A program made the position numbers and the translations under genes. Shown here piece after piece: positions 56,080-64,000 of a stretch of DNA of 64,000 nt. How positions within the stretch are numbered: the stretch's first letter is position 1; every line of letters starts with the position of its first letter. Where the stretch lies: assembly GCA_963707025.1 (NCBI GenBank), contig CAVPOM010000017.1, forward strand, positions 128,001 to 192,000, written 5' to 3'. Origin of the DNA: an uncultured Verrucomicrobiae bacterium. GTDB lineage: Bacteria > Verrucomicrobiota > Verrucomicrobiia > Limisphaerales > Palsa-1400. Under the pieces are notes generated by a model, which was not told the DNA's origin, ran no database searches, and was given only the letters and a program-made list of their open reading frames with translations.

Positions 56080-58083
56080 TCATTGCCGCTCGGCGATGGA
56101 CTGGAGAATTCCCCCCACGACTTCGCCCTTGGGCTTGGCGCCCTGGTTGCCTTTGCCGTGGACGCGCACGCTCACCTGGCCGGCCTCCAGGTCGCGCTGG
56201 CCGATCACCAGCATGGTGTGGACTTTGGCCTCCTCGGCCCGCTGGATCTTGCCGTTGATTTTGTCGGTGCCGAAATCGCCCTCCGCCCGGACTTGCTTGG
56301 CGCGCAGTTCGGCGATGATGGACTTGGCATAGGTGACGAGCTTTTCGTCGTCGCCGATGGTCAGGACGCGGACCTGCTCGGGGGCGAGCCACAAGGGGAA
56401 ATTGCCGGCGTAATGCTCGATGAGGAATCCGATGAAACGCTCGTGCGTGCCCAGCGGGGCGCGATGGATGCAGAGCGGCGTCTTGTCGGTGTTGTCCTTG
56501 TCGCGGTAGGTGAGGCCGAATCTGGCGGGGACGGCGAAATCCACCTGGTTGGTGGCGAGGGTGAATTCGCGGCCAATGACGCTCCAGACCTGCACGTCAA
56601 TTTTCGGCCCGTAAAAGGCGGCTTCGTTGGGCACCTCGACGTACGGGATGCCGCTGTTTTTAAGCACGTCGCGCACCATGTTCTCGGTCTGAATCCAGAG
56701 GGCCGGTTCGTTGACGAATTTCTGGCCGAGCTTGGCCGGGTCGTGCGTGCTGAAGCGCATGACGTGTTTCTCGATGCCGAAAATCTTGAAATACTTGAGA
56801 TACAATTCGTTGACGGCGTTGAACTCCTGCGCGAATTGTTCCGGGGTGCAGTAAATGTGGGCGTCGTTCATGTTCAACATGCGCACGCGCATCAGGCCGA
56901 ACAACTCGCCCGATTGTTCGTAGCGATAGTTCGTGCCATATTCCGCCAGGCGCAACGGCAGATCCCGGTAACTCCGCGGCTCCGCCGCAAAAATGCGGTG
57001 GTGGTGCGGGCAGTTCATGGCTTTGAGGTAATAGACTTCGCCTGTTGCCAACTGTGCTTCCAATCTGAGCCGTTCTGTATTCTCCTTGTTAATGGCGCGA
57101 CCACGGTCACTAAGAAAGGCTTCGGATTGTTCACGATTTTCAATTTGCGTCATGTCCTCCCAGAATTTGTTTTCGTTCACACGAATCGCCTGAATCCGAG
57201 ATTGGACATTCGCTTCGTTTTCAATTGGAAGTCTTATCGCAGGAAACATCGAATCTTTGTAAAGAATCGGCAGATGTCCGCTCGTGAGATACATTTTTTC
57301 TTTCGCAATGTGCGGCGTTTTCACGCGCACGTAGCCGGCGGCGAATTCGGTTTCCTTGGCGAGCTTTTCCAACTCCTCCAAAATGGCGGTGCCTTTGGGA
57401 AGCCAGAGCGGGAGGCCGGGGCCGACGTATTCGGCGTCCATGGCGAAGAGGCCCATTTCCTGGCCAATCCTGCGGTGGTCGCGGCGCTTGGCTTCCTCCA
57501 CCATCGCGAAATAGGCCTCCATCTCGGTCTTGTTTTTGAAGGCGGTGCCGTAGATGCGCTGGAGCTGCGGATTTTTTTCGTCGCCTTTGTAGTAGGCGCT
57601 GGCGACGGTGGTGAGCTTGAACGCGCCGATGTTGCCGGTGCGCATGACATGCGGCCCGGCGCACAGGTCCAGAAAATCGCCGTTTTTGAAATAGGTGATC
57701 TGTTCGCCTTCGGGAATGTCCGCCAGGTTGCCGATTTTGAATTTGCTCGGCTGGCCGGGGCGCTCGGCCAGGGCCCCGAGCCGTCCGCTTTCCGCGTCGC
57801 GCAGGGCCTGTTCGCGGGTGACGGTCATCTTCTCGAAAGTGTGGTTGGCCTTGATTTCCTGTTTCATCCCAGCCTCGATTTTCGGGAAATCCTCCGGCGT
57901 GATGCGGTGCGGCAGTTCGACATCATAATAGAAACCGTTTTCGACGGGCGGGCCGGCGGCGAATTGGGCTTCGGGCCAGAGGCGGAGGATGGCGGTGGCC
58001 ATGACATGGGCGCAGGAATGGCGGAGGCGTTCCAAGTCGGTCATCTGCTGGCGGTCGTCGGGCGATTTGTGTTCGTTATCCAT
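56080..58083 (-). CDS. thrS: Threonine--tRNA ligase with an internal insertion
   Basis: LRHSCAHVMA, DLCAGPH, RDHRRIG, KAMNCPHH, YRYEQSG, AFYGPKID, IHRAPLGTHERF. Confidence 0.98.
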   Translation of the reverse strand: MDNEHKSPDDRQQMTDLERLRHSCAHVMATAILRLWPEAQFAAGPPVENGFYYDVELPHRITPEDFPKIEAGMKQEIKANHTFEKMTVTREQALRDAESGRLGALAERPGQPSKFKIGNLADIPEGEQITYFKNGDFLDLCAGPHVMRTGNIGAFKLTTVASAYYKGDEKNPQLQRIYGTAFKNKTEMEAYFAMVEEAKRRDHRRIGQEMGLFAMDAEYVGPGLPLWLPKGTAILEELEKLAKETEFAAGYVRVKTPHIAKEKMYLTSGHLPILYKDSMFPAIRLPIENEANVQSRIQAIRVNENKFWEDMTQIENREQSEAFLSDRGRAINKENTERLRLEAQLATGEVYYLKAMNCPHHHRIFAAEPRSYRDLPLRLAEYGTNYRYEQSGELFGLMRVRMLNMNDAHIYCTPEQFAQEFNAVNELYLKYFKIFGIEKHVMRFSTHDPAKLGQKFVNEPALWIQTENMVRDVLKNSGIPYVEVPNEAAFYGPKIDVQVWSVIGREFTLATNQVDFAVPARFGLTYRDKDNTDKTPLCIHRAPLGTHERFIGFLIEHYAGNFPLWLAPEQVRVLTIGDDEKLVTYAKSIIAELRAKQVRAEGDFGTDKINGKIQRAEEAKVHTMLVIGQRDLEAGQVSVRVHGKGNQGAKPKGEVVGGILQSIAERQ

Positions 58084-58134
58084 AAATAAATTCTAGCGGC
58101 GAATTTCTGCTACGGTCGCAAGATAGACCCAAGC

Positions 58135-58244
58135 GGAGTGCGCCCGTCCTCGGGCGCAGAAAGCTCGGCCTATGCTAACGCGACAAAGTTTTCCACGGCT
58201 CATTTGCACTTTCACGTTGCTGCGCCCGGGGACGGGCGCACTCC
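58135..58244. repeat. Inverted REP pair (REPIN-like)
   Basis: GGAGTGCGCCCGTCCTCGGGCGCAG (58135-58159) and inverted copy at 58220-58244, 24/25 match. Confidence 0.85.
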
Positions 58245-58283
58245 AATTCGCGAAATTCGCGGATTGAACCCTTTTCTGATAAC

Positions 58284-58853
58284 TCAATGCGCTCCCAAAT
58301 TCAAGTCCTTGGTCTGCCCGTTCCATTCCACGGTCACTTTGTTTTGAGTGATGGCGAGGATGCGGACATCGCCGATTTGTTCGTTTTGAGCGCGGATTTG
58401 TCCATTGATGGCCGCTCTCGGATTGTTGGGGTTGTAGAAAATGCCCTGCAGTTTCAACTCGGGAAACGGCAGACCCTCCTTCGCTGAAGCTACGGCGGGC
58501 AGCGGCGCAGGCGCTGGAACCGGAACGCGTTCAACTTGGGCGGCCGCGGGCACAGGCGCCGGAGCCGGGACGGCAGCGGGTTCAACCTTGGGCAGCGGTC
58601 GCATCACCACTACCGGCGGGAGCTCCTTCACTGAAGCGACGAAGGGTTGGGGATTGGCGCGATGCGGAAAGGAACGCCAAACCAACCAGCCTGCCAAGGC
58701 CAACAAAATAAATATGCAAACGCCCCCCAGCGCCGGGACAAGGGAACGGCGGGATTCAGGGGCCGGCTGCATGGCGGCGTGCGGGCCGGGCTTGCGCGGG
58801 CGGTTTTTTTCCGATTGGCTGGCGCGCTTGAGTGCGTCGTTGATCAGGCTCAT
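58284..58853 (-). CDS. GspB/ExeB-like protein
   Basis: MSLINDALKRA, TM, Pro-rich linker, LKLQGIFY..AAING; follows ExeA. Confidence 0.82.
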   Translation of the reverse strand: MSLINDALKRASQSEKNRPRKPGPHAAMQPAPESRRSLVPALGGVCIFILLALAGWLVWRSFPHRANPQPFVASVKELPPVVVMRPLPKVEPAAVPAPAPVPAAAQVERVPVPAPAPLPAVASAKEGLPFPELKLQGIFYNPNNPRAAINGQIRAQNEQIGDVRILAITQNKVTVEWNGQTKDLNLGAH

Positions 58854-59665
58854 ACCTTGATGCGCCCTTCCAATTCGCGGACAGCCGTGCCGACCATGCG
58901 GAAATCAATTTTGTCGCGCTGCTGGACGAAGCCGGCCAGCAGGCATTTGTCGCAGACGGTGTTGATGAGGCGGGGGATGCAGGCGCTGTAGCGGTAAATG
59001 CGCCAGACGGCCGGGCCGGTGAACCGGGGCGCGCCGTTGGCCCCGGAAACTTGCAGGCGGTGCTGGATGTAGCGGCTGATCTCGCCGTGGCGCAGGGGAT
59101 GGAGATGGTAGCGGACGCTGATGCGCTGGCGCAACTGGCGCAGGCCGTGCTCGTTGAGGCGGTCGCGCAATTCGGGCTGGCCCATCAGGACGATTTGCAG
59201 GAGCTTGCGCTCGTCGGTTTCAAGGTTGGAAAGGAGGCGGACCTGTTCGAGCAGTTCGCGGGTGAGGGCCTGGGCTTCGTCAATAATAAGGACGGTGTCC
59301 TTGCCGCGCTCAACCTGCTGGAGGAGGAAGCGGTTGATCGCAGCCAGGGTTTCCAGGCGGTCCATGCCCTGGACCGCCAAACCCAGTTCCATGGCGATGG
59401 CCTTGATGAGCTGGTCGGCGTCGAGCACGGGATTCAGAATGAGGGCGGTGGAGAACTGCGGGCCGAGTTGCTCGAGCAGGGCGCGGCACAGGGTGGTTTT
59501 GCCCGAGCCGACTTCGCCGGTCAACTGGACAAAGCCCTTGCGCTCGCGGATGCCGTACAGCAAATGGTTGAAGGCTTCGCGATGCTTGCCGCTGAAAAAG
59601 AGGAACCGCGGATTCGGCGTAATGGTAAACGGCGGCTCCTTCAGACCGTAATAGTCCAGGTACAC
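58850..59665 (-). CDS. GspA/ExeA-like AAA ATPase
   Basis: MYLDYYGLKEPPF, GEVGSGKTT, IIDEAQ, LLSNLET, GQPEL, IPRLIN. Confidence 0.93.
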   Translation of the reverse strand: MYLDYYGLKEPPFTITPNPRFLFFSGKHREAFNHLLYGIRERKGFVQLTGEVGSGKTTLCRALLEQLGPQFSTALILNPVLDADQLIKAIAMELGLAVQGMDRLETLAAINRFLLQQVERGKDTVLIIDEAQALTRELLEQVRLLSNLETDERKLLQIVLMGQPELRDRLNEHGLRQLRQRISVRYHLHPLRHGEISRYIQHRLQVSGANGAPRFTGPAVWRIYRYSACIPRLINTVCDKCLLAGFVQQRDKIDFRMVGTAVRELEGRIKV

Positions 59666-59735
59666 GGCCTTTACCTAGCCTAAATCGGGCGGCAAGTGAA
59701 GAAAAATGCGAGCAGGGCGGGGGGGGGCTCCTCTT

Positions 59736-59817
59736 AATCTTAATCGTAATCTTAATCTTAATCTCCCCTCGTTTGGGCGAAAAGATTGAGATTAAGATTA
59801 AGATTACGATTAAGATT
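59736..59817. repeat. Perfect 30-bp inverted repeat built from TTAATC hexamers
   Basis: AATCTTAATCGTAATCTTAATCTTAATCTC - 22 nt - GAGATTAAGATTAAGATTACGATTAAGATT. Confidence 0.95.
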
Positions 59818-59862
59818 TGGAGGAACACCACTCTGGACGTTCCTTCCGCCCTCCGTTACCCT

Positions 59863-60691
59863 GTGCCCGTGAATTTGGAAGACCATCTGGGCGACATCCT
59901 GAGCAAGGGCTGCGCCGCCTCCGGTGTGGACGCATCCGCCGCCGCGCGAGCGGCCGGTTTGACTCTGCCCGAGTGGAATGCTTTGGCACAAACCGGCCTG
60001 GCGCCCAAGCCCCTCAATTTTGCCGCGCTCGGCCGCGCCCTCGGCCTGGATGCCGGCAAGCTGCAAGGCATCGCCCAAGGCTGGAAACCGGCCCCGGCCG
60101 ATCTGTCCTTGTGGCGCGAGTTGCGCCAGATCACCACCACCGCCGGCGGCACCACCGTCAACTGCTATCTCGCCTGGGACGAAGTTCTCGCGCGAAGCCG
60201 CGCTGTTTGACACCGGTTGGGAGGCCGCTCCCGTCCTGCAATTGCTGCAGGACAACCATCTGGATTTGCGCCATCTTTTCCTCACCCATCTGCACGAAGA
60301 CCACGTTGCCGCGATGGGGGAGATCCGGGAAAAGTTTCCCAAACTCCATCTCCACACCAATTCCCAAACCGCGCCGGTCCAGCAGCGCAACCGCCCCAAC
60401 GATTTTCTCCACCTCGGCAGCCTGCGCATCACCCATCGCGACACCCCCGGCCACGCCGTGGAAGGTGTCACCTATATTATTGGCAACTGGCCCGACGACG
60501 CGCCCCATGCCGCCGCGGTGGGCGACACCATTTTTGCCGGTTCCATGGGCCGGGGCTACCAATCCTGGGACCTGGCCCGGCAAAAAGTGCGCGAGCAAAT
60601 TTTGTCCCTGCCCGGCGCGACCCTGATCTGCCCCGGCCACGGCCCCCTGACCACCGTTGCCCAGGAAAAGGCCAACAACCCGTTCTTCTGA
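59863..60691 (+). CDS. MBL-fold metallo-hydrolase (glyoxalase II-like) with N-terminal HTH-like region (frameshift ~60190)
   Basis: NLEDHLGDIL..VNCYLAWD in one frame; FDTG, THLHEDH, TPGH, GDTIFAGS, PGHGP, EKANNPFF in the next. Confidence 0.85.
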
Positions 60692-61415
60692 TCCACCCGG
60701 AAGGGACCCAAGCCGTTCCTTCAGGCGCGCAAACCATTCCCACCGAAGAAACGGAGAGCAAGGCAGGCGAGTTCTGCGCCCGGAAACCCGCCTCGCCACC
60801 TTGGGCAGGGCGAAGAATCGGGCTGCTCAACGCGCTGGCGCGAAGCGGAAAGGGGGACGAAGAATTCGTGAGGGAGCGGCAGTTCACGCAAGGCGTGGAG
60901 ACGGCTGCCAGGGGCAAAAGCGCCGGCCATGTGAACAAACTGTCAGCAACTTCCAGCAACTCAAGCTCGCAAAAAAACGACCAGGCCGGAAAATCGGGAC
61001 CAAAGGCGAACTATCATGTTTATGGCCCTATCTGTCCATCAGACGGCCCACCCGACCGCCGCAGCCAGCCCGCAGCAGAGCAGCGAAGCGACGGGCGAAC
61101 CAGCACGTCACACAAGGTCCGACGCGCGGCCAAGAGGCGCGCTTGGACAAGCCTTGCAAAACCCCGGAGGGGCAACGGGAAAAAAGCAACCCGTTCATCT
61201 TCTTTGTGCGGATTGTTCACCTTCCATTGATCAATTAGCATTTGCCCTCATCCCAAACACGGATTGTCCAACCCCTGCCACCCAACGCGGCGGCGTTACA
61301 AACGAGTCACCATAAGCATTGACAATTGAAGCCAGAACCGCTATTAGTGGCGGTATCGTTTCGCCCACCTACCATTTGTTGGGTGAATTTGGTTTGCCAT
61401 TACTCAGACGACGAT

Positions 61416-63982
61416 ATGATACACGAGGCCGGCCAGCTCAAAATGATCGGGATTGATCCTGTCGAGGAAACACGCTTCCTGGTGTGCAAACGCGACGGGT
61501 CCCGCGAGGATTTCAATGAGGCGCGCATTTTCATGGCCATCGAATGCGCCTTCAAAGCAGTCCATGGTGTTGGCCCCGATGAGCCGCTGCCGGAGGAGTT
61601 GCTGGCGGCCGTAGCGAAAACGGCGGAGGCTGTGGCGGAACGGGTGCTGAGCGGGGCCATCAAAGGCCAACCGCTGGAGGTGGAACGCATCCAGGATGTG
61701 GCGGAGGAACAATTGATGCGGGACGGACATTGGAAAGTAGCGCGAAGTTATATTCTTTATCGCGAGGAGCGGCGGCGAGCGCGGGTGGAACGGGAAAAAT
61801 CCGCCCCGCCAGTCCCGCCCCCCGCAAAGCCCCCGATTTGCGCACCGGAGCCGACGCCGCCGGCCACGGCACCCTCCCGCTTGCTGACTTGGGCGGCGGC
61901 GGCCTGCCGCGGATTGGAGGAGTGGTGCTCGATAGAAGATTTGGCAGAGGAGGCTTCGCGGCGGGCGCGGAGGGGCGTCGAGGATCTGGAAAAAGCGATG
62001 GAACTGGCGGCGGACTCGCGCCTGGGGGCGGACCCAGCCTATGACACGGTGGCGGCCCGCGTGCGGTTAAGCAGGATTTACCGGCAGGCCCTGCCCCAAT
62101 TGAAGGAGGGCGGGGAGGTGGAGCCGGTCTGCCGCCGGAGTTTCAGCGATTACATCCAGGAAGCGATTCGTAAAGGGCTGCTGGCGCCGGAGATGGCTGG
62201 TTTTGATCTGGAATCCCTGGCCAAGGGATTGCAACTGAAACGCGACGGGCAATTCAGCGCAACGGGCCTGGAGGTGTTGTCCGCCGACTATCTGTTGCGG
62301 GACAAAGGCCGGTGCCTGGAAACTCCCCAGTACTTTTGGATGCGCCTGGCCATGGGGCTGGCGTTGCGGGAAGGAGCGCAGGCGGGGGAACGCGCGCTGG
62401 AGTTTTATGAGGCGCTCTCCTCGTTTGCTTTTGTGCCTTCCGCGCCGCTGCTCTTCAACGCGGGCACGCCGCAACCTCACTTGGCAGCCTGTTTTACGGC
62501 CACGGCATGGAATGATCTGGAACACATCACCGCGCATCCGGGCGGCCGGATGAGCGAACGAATCCGCACCGGCCTCACCTGCTCCTGGCTGGAGCCGTGG
62601 CATATCGGCATGCCCGATTTTCTGGCGCATCCGCGGCCCGGCGAGGAGCCGTGGAACCAGGATCTGAACAAGGGCGGCTGGATTCCCGACCTGTTCATGC
62701 GGCGCGTCCGGGAAGGAGGCGGCTGGACGCTGTTCGACCCGCTGGAGGTGCCCGATTTGCACCGGCTTTTTGGCGCCGCCTTCGAGGCGCGTTTCCTCCG
62801 ATATGAAGCCAAGGCGGCCCGCGGCGAAATGAAGGAATTTCGGCAAGTCCCCGCGCTGGAACTGTGGGGCCAAATGCTGGCCTGTCTGGCCGGGACCGGG
62901 CAGCCATGGGTGGCCTTCAAGGACACCGCCAATGTCCGCTCGCTCCAGGATTCCGTCGGAGCGGTGCGCAGCGCCCAACTGGACGCCGGCACCCTGCTCC
63001 ACACCCCGGCCGCCTGCAGCCTGGGCGCGATCAACCTGGCGGCGCATGTGGGTGAACTGGGCCTGGACGCGGCGCGGCTGGGCCGGACGGTTGGGACGGC
63101 GATGCGTATGCTTGACAATGCCCTGGACCTCAGCGCCTGGCCCACGCCCGCCCTCCGGGCGGCCAGCCAGGAACAGCGCGCCGCCGGGCTGGGGATCACC
63201 GGTTTTCAGGAGGCGCTTTATCAATTGCGCCTGGGCTACGGCAGCGCCGCCGGGGCGGAATTTGCCGACCGCAGCATGGAATTGATTTCGCATGGGGCGA
63301 TCCTGGCCTCCACGGCGCTGGCGCAGGAGCGCGGCCCGTTCCCGGCTTATGCCGGGTCAAGATGGAGCACCGGCCTGCTGCCCGCCGATGCGCTGGAGTT
63401 GCTGGAAAAGCAGCGCGGGGCCGGCTGACGCTGGACCGGTCGGGCTGCCTGGATTGGACCTTGGTGCGCGAGAGCATCAAACGTCACGGCATGCGCAACG
63501 GCGCCGTCACCGCCATCGGGCCGGCGCTGGAAGGCTCCTGGATTGCCGGGGTGACGCCCTCCATCGAGCCGGCGGGGAGGGCCGTGTTCGGCGAGGGGGC
63601 GGGCGGCAGCCGCGGGGCGTGGAACCTGCATCTGGTGGAGGATTTGCGGCGGCTGCATTTGTGGGACGCTGCCATGCGGGAGGAGTTGCGCCAGAACGAG
63701 CACTCCATCCAGCAGATCAAACGGATTCCAGATTCCTTGCGGGAAATTTACCGGACGGCTTTTGAAATCGAGCCGCACTGGCTGATTGAATGCGCCGCGC
63801 GCCGCCAAAAATGGATTGACCAGGGCCAGACCCTGAACCTCTATGCGCCGGATGCGCGCTGGGAAGCCATCTCGGAAATTTACATGCTGGCTTGGGAGAT
63901 GGGATTGAAAACGACCAACCGGCTCCGCGTCCCCAGCCGGCTCCGCGCCAGAAACCGCCGGGAAAAAGCGCGCCGGCGATAA
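61416..63982 (+). CDS. Class I ribonucleotide reductase alpha-subunit homolog with ATP cone, apparently catalytically inactive (frameshift ~63422)
   Basis: CKRDG ATP cone, ETPQYFWMRLAMGL, LFNAGT, WIPDLFM, HGMRN, RQKWIDQGQTLN; SNLCxE is replaced by AQLDAG and TTYY by TTNR. Confidence 0.85.
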
Positions 63983-64000
63983 CCGTCACGGTATCCGCAA

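Follow-up and report, generated by a model that had tools for sequence, protein, structure and literature searches.

A catalytically dead descendant of the ribonucleotide reductase large subunit NrdA that is probably maintained under selection in one family of Verrucomicrobiota

The 64,000-nt window analysed here (C17:128001-192000) belongs to the genome of an uncultured Verrucomicrobiae bacterium (G000, a 6.96-Mb assembly of 18 contigs with an estimated completeness of 88%), and its last part carries a + strand gene related to nrdA, which encodes the large (alpha) subunit of class I ribonucleotide reductase (RNR). Taken together, our findings are best explained by a conserved, catalytically dead NrdA descendant that is kept under selection, a reading to which we give a probability of about 0.7. 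The gene is covered by two overlapping + strand open reading frames (ORFs), at 61326..63428 (700 amino acids) and 63362..63982 (206 amino acids). Its likely start is the ATG at 61416 (MIHEAGQLKMIGIDP), which lines up with the start codons of all orthologs, and from there the first coding part (frame A, 61416..63418, +, within ORF 61326..63428) runs to a first break in the frame. Within this ORF, Pfam detected an ATP-cone at 61482..61775 (+; PF03477, ORF residues 53-150, 67.4 bits with a cut-off of 25.8), the all-alpha domain Ribonuc_red_lgN at 62253..62474 (+; PF00317, 75.3 bits, ORF residues 310-383), and the beginning of the Ribonuc_red_lgC barrel (206.7 bits, profile positions 76-354), each domain scoring above its cut-off. 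The remainder of the barrel (130.3 bits, profile positions 363-520) was detected in the second ORF.

The course of the reading frame was followed in a DNA alignment with two orthologs of the same genus, G001 and G003, the latter being the closest relative. Exactly two indels lie inside the gene in this alignment, and both are 1-nt losses in G000. The first break (63416..63419, +, at about 63418) is one base short relative to both orthologs and adjoins a GGGG run; beyond it, the second coding part (frame B, 63419..63933, +, within ORF 63362..63982) encodes the second half of the barrel. The second break (63931..63935, +, at about 63934), likewise one base short relative to both orthologs, follows a CCCC run, and the stop at 63980-63982 is an artefact of this break. 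The third coding part (frame C, 63935..64000, +) encodes a Pro/Ala-rich tail without cysteines and continues past the end of the window, where extension of the sequence, as proposed in a first-pass annotation of the window, placed the stop at window-equivalent 64030-64032; this tail resembles that of G001. Read through both breaks, the gene is about 872 codons long, equal to the G003 ortholog. The first-pass annotation had counted about 850 codons and a single frameshift near 63422; that frameshift is present, at about 63418, but the breaks number two and the length comes to about 872 codons. The top NCBIfam model, NF005544 (PRK07207, NrdA), matched the gene in two pieces of 533.9 and 177.5 bits, which abut at profile position 738, at the site of the first break, and are under the equivalog cut-off of 965 bits.

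We then compared the protein with real NrdA from G028 and G032, which represent other families of the same bacterial order. Residue correspondence rests on these alignments; the labels N437, C439, E441, Y730, Y731, C225, and C462, which we take to follow Escherichia coli numbering, serve as labels only. In the former active-site finger loop (62970..62990, +), SAQLDAG replaces SSNLCTE, so that the catalytic Asn, Cys, and Glu are changed to Gln, Asp, and Gly. At 63917..63922 (+), NR replaces the Tyr-Tyr radical-transfer pair (KTTNRLR versus KTTYYLR), and at 63521..63538 (+), PALEGS replaces the phosphate-binding PTATIS loop (GPALEGS versus APTATIS), a site at which most proteins of the clade described below have an acidic residue. 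A deletion scar occupies 62511..62603 (+), where NDLEHI (62511-62528) is followed by a short linker and CSWLEPWH. About 40 residues have been deleted here, namely the rest of helix A, loop 1, helix B, and loop 2 with NQGGKRKG, leaving 17 of the 57 residues of this segment; residues 386-444 of the chain in PDB 5im3 (Pseudomonas aeruginosa class Ia NrdA with dATP) are unmatched in the alignment. In the enzyme, both the specificity site and the canonical dimer interface are formed by this helix-A/loop-1/helix-B/loop-2 segment. The C-terminal cysteine pair is gone as well, the tail containing no cysteine in any of the three frames. Two other cysteines are retained, the Cys225 equivalent in AACF (62484..62495, +; SSCY in real NrdA) and the Cys462 equivalent in AACSLG (63009..63026, +; AVCNLG in real NrdA).

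The first-pass annotation had located AQLDAG (62973-62990), AACSLG, AACF, PALEGS, and NR from the letters of the sequence, and all of these coordinates were exact. Its description of a largely deleted specificity segment agrees with the residues counted above, and its view that the ATP-cone and scaffold motifs are retained agrees with the three Pfam domains; the loss of the C-terminal cysteine pair is an addition to its list. Of seven features that define a functional class Ia NrdA, the protein has one, the domain architecture, and lacks six, and therefore it should not be filed as a class Ia NrdA enzyme. Judging from these alignments, the protein descends from class Ia NrdA of the double-ATP-cone group to which that of P. 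aeruginosa belongs, and it cannot act as a radical reductase.

The remainder of the RNR system was searched for in G000 and its relatives. NrdB (PF00268) was not found in G000, at its 88% completeness, nor in any of the 31 genomes available for the family, of which 18 are of high quality. Across the order, NrdB is present in 23 of 121 genomes, and these 23 include all five in which a full-length real NrdA was detected (G028, G032, G033, G036, and G040). NrdD was also not found in G000. The genome does encode a B12-dependent NrdJ (C4:264406-266142) in a frame of 1,038 residues that scored 1276.5 bits with NF005122 (cut-off 859), and NrdJ scored above the cut-off in 28 of the 31 family genomes. 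By its profile match, NrdJ is the working ribonucleotide reductase of G000. The genome contains only two ATP-cones, one in the dead NrdA and the other in NrdR (TIGR00244, 185.8 bits), and NrdJ is therefore without a cone of its own.

A profile built from nine intact orthologs was run on the 31 family genomes, which represent 10 genera. Dead NrdA was found in 20 genomes and in 9 of the genera of this soil/peat family of Verrucomicrobiota. The frame is uninterrupted in 19 of the 20 copies, the sole exception being that of G000. The copy in G148 was counted as intact because, although one match contains a TAG, a stop-free frame of 694 residues spans the whole protein. In a phylogenetic tree of 67 sequences, the 20 dead copies of the family formed one clade (support 1.0) on a stem of 0.49 substitutions/site, nested among the real NrdA of Verrucomicrobiota. 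Furthermore, among the 120 best matches retrieved from a collection of 5.8 billion proteins, 49, including the studied copy, share the deletion, and the other 71 are real NrdA. The Tyr-Tyr pair was seen in none of the 49 dead proteins, the table row of the studied copy ending before this site, and their tails have no cysteine or a single one, as against three in the real NrdA of the same set. All 71 real NrdA have SNLCTE, and 70 have Tyr-Tyr, the remaining sequence ending before the site. Because these losses are shared across the dead clade, its ancestor had already lost the entry point of the radical, the redox-active tail, and the segment with the specificity site.

The catalytic triad presents a different picture. 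Among the 49 dead proteins, Glu441 is kept in none, Asn437 in 5, and Cys439 in 26, and in the genus of the studied copy the triad reads Q, D or G, and G. As traced in the alignment, the triad decayed later and bit by bit, at times that differ between branches. The source databases usually name the clade proteins "ribonucleoside-diphosphate reductase subunit alpha" and in one case "ATP cone domain-containing protein". This naming, together with the retained overall RNR fold and ATP-cone, is what could be said for a protein that is still a working ribonucleotide reductase and obtains its radical in an unconventional way. However, this reading has next to no chance of being correct. In the studied copy, Asp takes the place of the thiyl-radical cysteine, and neither Asn437 nor Glu441 is retained. 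The clade as a whole has lost the Tyr-Tyr pair, the C-terminal cysteines, and loops 1 and 2 of the specificity site, NrdB was found in 0 of the 31 family genomes, and the score is below the NCBIfam equivalog cut-off.

The dead copies also vary among genera. In the genus of G009 (G009:C1:1228684-1230213), dead NrdA is 586-659 residues long and has lost a barrel segment that extends from the Cys225 region up to and including the finger loop, yet its frame remains open. In G017, a second ATP-cone is still recognisable. A second ATP-cone match in G024 (G024:C25:9803-10186) lies inside a 749-residue frame on another contig and may represent a second paralog.

The structure of the closest intact ortholog was predicted with AlphaFold2 from an 83-sequence alignment, giving a predicted local distance difference test score (pLDDT) of 84.6 and a predicted template modelling score (pTM) of 0.78. 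Confidence was low at the termini, in the linker at 130-150, and in the loop at 726-733, and it was moderate in the former finger loop (pLDDT 60-66, the lowest inside the barrel). In a Foldseek search with this model, the top match was 5im3, with a template modelling (TM) score of 0.73, followed by the human, yeast, Aquifex, and E. coli large subunits (R1). These results suggest that the shell of the protein folds like RNR alpha. The structure 5im3 is also the best sequence match among solved structures (E-value 8e-170). Like the P. aeruginosa-type class Ia NrdA, the dead protein has the order ATP-cone 1, remnant of ATP-cone 2 (in this genus), all-alpha domain, and ten-stranded barrel, and its ATP-cone is nearly unchanged. 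Unlike that enzyme, it is without the Asn/Cys/Glu triad, the Tyr-Tyr pair, the C-terminal cysteine pair, loops 1 and 2, and the helix-A/B dimer interface, its phosphate loop is altered, no NrdB partner is encoded in the genome, and its score is below the NF005544 cut-off.

The confidently predicted barrel and the retained cysteines raise the question of a new enzyme or redox protein, in which the equivalents of Cys225 and Cys462, joined in some branches by Cys439, would carry out a thiol chemistry other than that of RNR. The Cys462 equivalent is kept in 48 of the 49 dead proteins and the Cys225 equivalent in 41, with Cys439 in 26 as given above. Nevertheless, we think such a role improbable, since the acidic phosphate loop and the deleted loop 2 make a nucleotide substrate site unlikely, G009, G017, and G022 have lost the whole mid-barrel including these cysteines and still keep the frame, and the finger-loop region is where the prediction is least confident inside the barrel.

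Selection on the gene was estimated from pairwise ratios of nonsynonymous to synonymous substitution (dN/dS, or omega; NG86 with bootstrap) and from codon maximum likelihood under a single-omega model. Pairwise dN/dS was 0.47 for G000-G003 (bootstrap interval 0.37-0.61), 0.34 for G003-G001 (0.29-0.42), 0.24 for G019-G024 (0.20-0.30), and 0.245 for G008-G016 (0.20-0.29), and none of these intervals reaches 1. Pairs of real NrdA had a median of 0.058 (range 0.017-0.127). By maximum likelihood, omega was 0.18 for ten dead copies (670 gap-free codons) versus 0.062 for ten real NrdA (925 codons). Thus, purifying selection on the dead copies is clear but weak, about three times weaker than that on real NrdA. 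When the protein was divided into five regions, omega was lowest in the ATP-cone (0.08-0.22) and highest in the linker with the second-cone remnant (0.34-0.78). The conserved KRDG motif of the ATP-cone and the motifs that follow it are present, and about 30 cone positions show conservation of 90% or more when the dead clade and real NrdA are taken together, among them K25, R26, D27, F33, R37, and I38. In real NrdA, 365 alignment columns are conserved at 95% or more; of these, the dead clade keeps 138, and 115 are degenerate or deleted in it. A further 23 have switched to a new residue conserved within the clade (e.g., S341P, Y391W, T419K, and H496Q), and these switched positions are more in keeping with a new selective regime than with simple decay.

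The first-pass annotation had taken the gene for a maintained pseudo-enzyme and not for a pseudogene in decay; at the level of the family, this proposal is supported by open frames, shared losses, and dN/dS below 1. The orthologs with the same losses that it suggested looking for exist, as does a functional RNR elsewhere in the genome (NrdJ on C4, with NrdB and NrdD not found in G000), and the dN/dS values, 0.24-0.47 for the pairs and 0.18 by maximum likelihood, are well below the neutral value that it named as a refutation.

These observations can be arranged into the following scenario. The ancestor of one Verrucomicrobiota family lost NrdB, and its NrdA lost the Tyr-Tyr pair through which the radical enters, the redox cysteines of the C-terminus, and the segment from helix A to loop 2. 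The catalytic Asn, Cys, and Glu decayed later, branch by branch, and deoxyribonucleotides are supplied by the B12-dependent NrdJ. The dead protein has been kept as an intact frame under purifying selection, with the constraint strongest on the N-terminal ATP-cone. This cone would still bind ATP/dATP, and the protein would act as a regulator or scaffold that responds to nucleotides, perhaps by self-association driven by the cone. The conservation of the cone is consistent with this last step, and we put forward the role of an ATP/dATP-binding regulator or scaffold tentatively, as somewhat short of an even chance. In the closest relative of solved structure, that of P. aeruginosa, two dATP molecules are bound by the cone and the cones touch each other, according to PMC5794259 and the title of 5im3. 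A more specific and rather doubtful version is that the dead NrdA is a free-standing ATP-cone switch, which would either exert dATP/ATP feedback in trans on the cone-less NrdJ or join NrdR oligomers. If this were true, one RNR class would be under the allosteric control of the fossil of another.

Several known proteins offer partial parallels. NrdR is, like the dead NrdA, a non-catalytic ATP-cone protein, and its cone, which reads ATP/dATP, is a model for the action of a cone outside the enzyme; unlike NrdR, which has about 150 residues and a DNA-binding zinc ribbon, the dead NrdA has no DNA-binding domain and has an RNR body of 700 residues. The beta-herpesvirus proteins M45 and UL45 are inactive R1 homologs that have been selected for blocking cell-death signalling via an added N-terminal motif. 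In these viral proteins too, the RNR large-subunit fold has outlived catalysis and is retained by selection for another role; however, they are viral and of eukaryotic-type origin, whereas the dead NrdA is bacterial and chromosomal, is best kept in its ATP-cone, and has no counterpart of the cell-death role. The comparison is apt as an analogy only. Yeast Rnr4 is an RNR beta-like subunit without metal ligands that partners the active Rnr2 in a functioning class I enzyme. It resembles the dead NrdA as a dead paralog of an RNR subunit that is under selection, and differs in being a eukaryotic beta subunit, whereas the dead NrdA is derived from alpha and no class I enzyme remains beside it. Full-text searches of a paper library and passages of PMC9531940 and PMC5794259 yielded no account of a maintained dead bacterial NrdA, although the sequence tables of the RNR phylogeny paper could include such proteins without comment.

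The two frame breaks make the studied copy the exception in its family, and we examined whether they belong to the organism or to the assembly. Raw blastn gaps of 1-2 nt between G000 and G003 (94 versus 117 non-3n gaps in 189 kb) failed to polarise errors because compensated and intergenic gaps dominate, and a reciprocal tblastn screen was not independent because alternative frames also align at this DNA identity. Both were therefore replaced by a test based on the phase of GC content at third codon positions (GC3). Stop-free frames of G003 (16 regions, 318 kb) mapped onto G000 revealed 28 distinct changes of frame over about 203 kb of orthologous DNA (e.g., at C18:2256, C16:28673-28683, and C16:26778-26819). 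The GC3 phase was shifted in G000 only in 19 events, in G003 only in 2, in both in 6, and in neither in 1. The genes broken in G000 and confirmed by Pfam to be intact in G003 include carA, the HPr kinase gene, an LptD-like gene, DPP IV, glycoside hydrolase genes, and the gene directly upstream of the dead nrdA, which encodes a metallo-beta-lactamase-like fold; the breakage of carA, a core biosynthetic gene, indicates indel errors in the assembly. Within the dead nrdA, no stop interrupts either frame beyond the breaks, and what they encode matches the orthologs as far as the homologous stop. The omega of the G000 branch (0.54) is close to that of G003 (0.41), and the breaks, if real, would be recent. 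At the first site, a contig from a relative of about 93% identity carries one more G, after 63421. Programmed frameshifting was rejected because neither ortholog shifts at either site. The two 1-base gaps are thus probably errors of an indel-rich assembly, and the organism itself would have an intact gene of about 872 codons. Any "pseudogene" call in G000 needs a caveat about frame breaks, and the 88% completeness estimate may be depressed.

A number of observations weigh against the maintained dead NrdA as set out above. The constraint is weak, because the G000-G003 value of 0.47 is in the top 3% of the dN/dS background for this genome pair (median 0.22, n = 76; 2 of the 76 genes at 0.44 or more). 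The gene was not found in 11 of the 31 family genomes, including 3 of the 6 in its own genus (89, 83, and 64% complete), and is therefore dispensable or often lost. Proteins of this genus have about 872 residues, but those of G009 and G022 have shrunk to 586, which fits slow erosion. The copy in G145 is without most of the ATP-cone, which speaks against the cone being essential everywhere; this copy, the patchy distribution, and the weak constraint all count against a cone-centred role. A Pfam search of 50 flanking ORFs at 9 loci found no partner common to the genera and no NrdB adjoining any dead copy, and since no neighbour is conserved across genera, the context gives no clue to a partner. 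One search of sequencing runs yielded DNA contigs of relatives only and no RNA run with the gene. As for the studied copy, two breaks in 2.6 kb exceed the rate obtained from the genome-wide screen (Poisson P of about 0.03, the screen being an undercount). No reads of this strain were found in public sequencing runs, the best of which contains 0.13 of the sampled words, and contigs from four runs came from relatives, mostly less than 95% identical and none at 99% or more, with no reads of the strain across the breaks.

Two rival explanations draw on these points. In the first, the whole clade is a slowly decaying relic without function, and the constraint is a by-product, for example of selection against toxic misfolded fragments or of the short time since NrdB was lost. 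Selection relaxed 3- to 8-fold relative to real NrdA, progressive deletions down to 586 residues, the patchy distribution, and the absence of a conserved gene context would all suit such a relic. We nevertheless judge it very unlikely, because 19 of 20 frames are open at amino acid identities down to about 45%, which is excluded under neutral decay, omega is 0.18-0.47 with bootstrap intervals that exclude 1, constraint is uneven and strongest on the ATP-cone, and 23 positions have a newly conserved residue of their own. In the second, the family keeps a dead NrdA, but this lineage has recently inactivated its copy by two 1-base deletions and is losing the gene. The density of the gaps, the 3 of 6 genomes of the genus in which the gene was not found, and the omega of the G000 branch (0.54, the highest of the three branches, versus 0.41 for G003) could be read in this way. 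A truly broken copy still seems unlikely, although it deserves to be taken seriously: the same kind of frame change occurs in carA and the HPr kinase gene, with 19 G000-only events versus 2 G003-only events, the adjoining metallo-beta-lactamase (MBL)-fold gene is broken too, the frames past the breaks stay open and can be aligned as far as the homologous stop, and both breaks adjoin runs of four G or four C.

The surroundings of the gene were also surveyed. About 70 nt upstream of the start is a putative promoter, TTGACA-17 nt-TATTAG (61319..61347, +), which is kept in G003 and was missed by a consensus scanner because of the final G of its second hexamer. Closer to the gene, a small hairpin (61366-61385), also conserved with G003, precedes a T-rich run about 30 nt ahead of the start codon; the RNA fold of the leader (61325-61420) is unremarkable (z = -1.8). 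An Rfam scan of 58000-64000 with E-values up to 1 gave one sub-threshold chance match and no riboswitch upstream of the gene. Neither the window nor the NrdJ locus (4.7 kb) gave a match to an NrdR box when up to 3 mismatches were allowed, a result that says little because the consensus used may not apply to this phylum. Synteny is limited to the genus, where it takes in the MBL-fold gene upstream and, downstream, a gene for a secreted protein of 2,128 residues. The MBL-fold gene (Lactamase_B; 59773-60691), which immediately precedes the dead nrdA, is split into two frames at about 60186 by an extra T relative to G003, whose ortholog is a single frame of 378 residues with an N-terminal part ahead of the MBL domain. 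Between its stop and the promoter-like block is a 539-nt stretch (60692-61230) that has no counterpart in G003, is unique in G000, and contains no convincing ORF. Two genes upstream of the dead nrdA, at 58850-59665 (-), is an AAA_22/nSTAND1-like NTPase gene, which was not seen beside dead NrdA in other genera. The secreted protein (C17:192671-199057, past the window end; PA14, CHB_HEX_C_1, Fn3_assoc, and Big_7 domains) is syntenic in G003, and its gene is intact over 6.4 kb despite the frame breaks elsewhere in the assembly.

Few enzymes have received as much study as ribonucleotide reductase, and surveys of genomes and metagenomes rely on its large subunit as a marker gene. Taken at face value, the annotation "subunit alpha" wrongly gives an aerobic class I RNR to organisms that rely on B12 and NrdJ. 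The clade is a natural experiment on what becomes of the RNR alpha scaffold after catalysis, in which the ATP-cone and parts of the barrel are kept and the specificity site and the dimer interface are not. It may also be a case in which the ATP-cone has been re-used as a stand-alone nucleotide sensor, a possibility that is testable on the recombinant protein.

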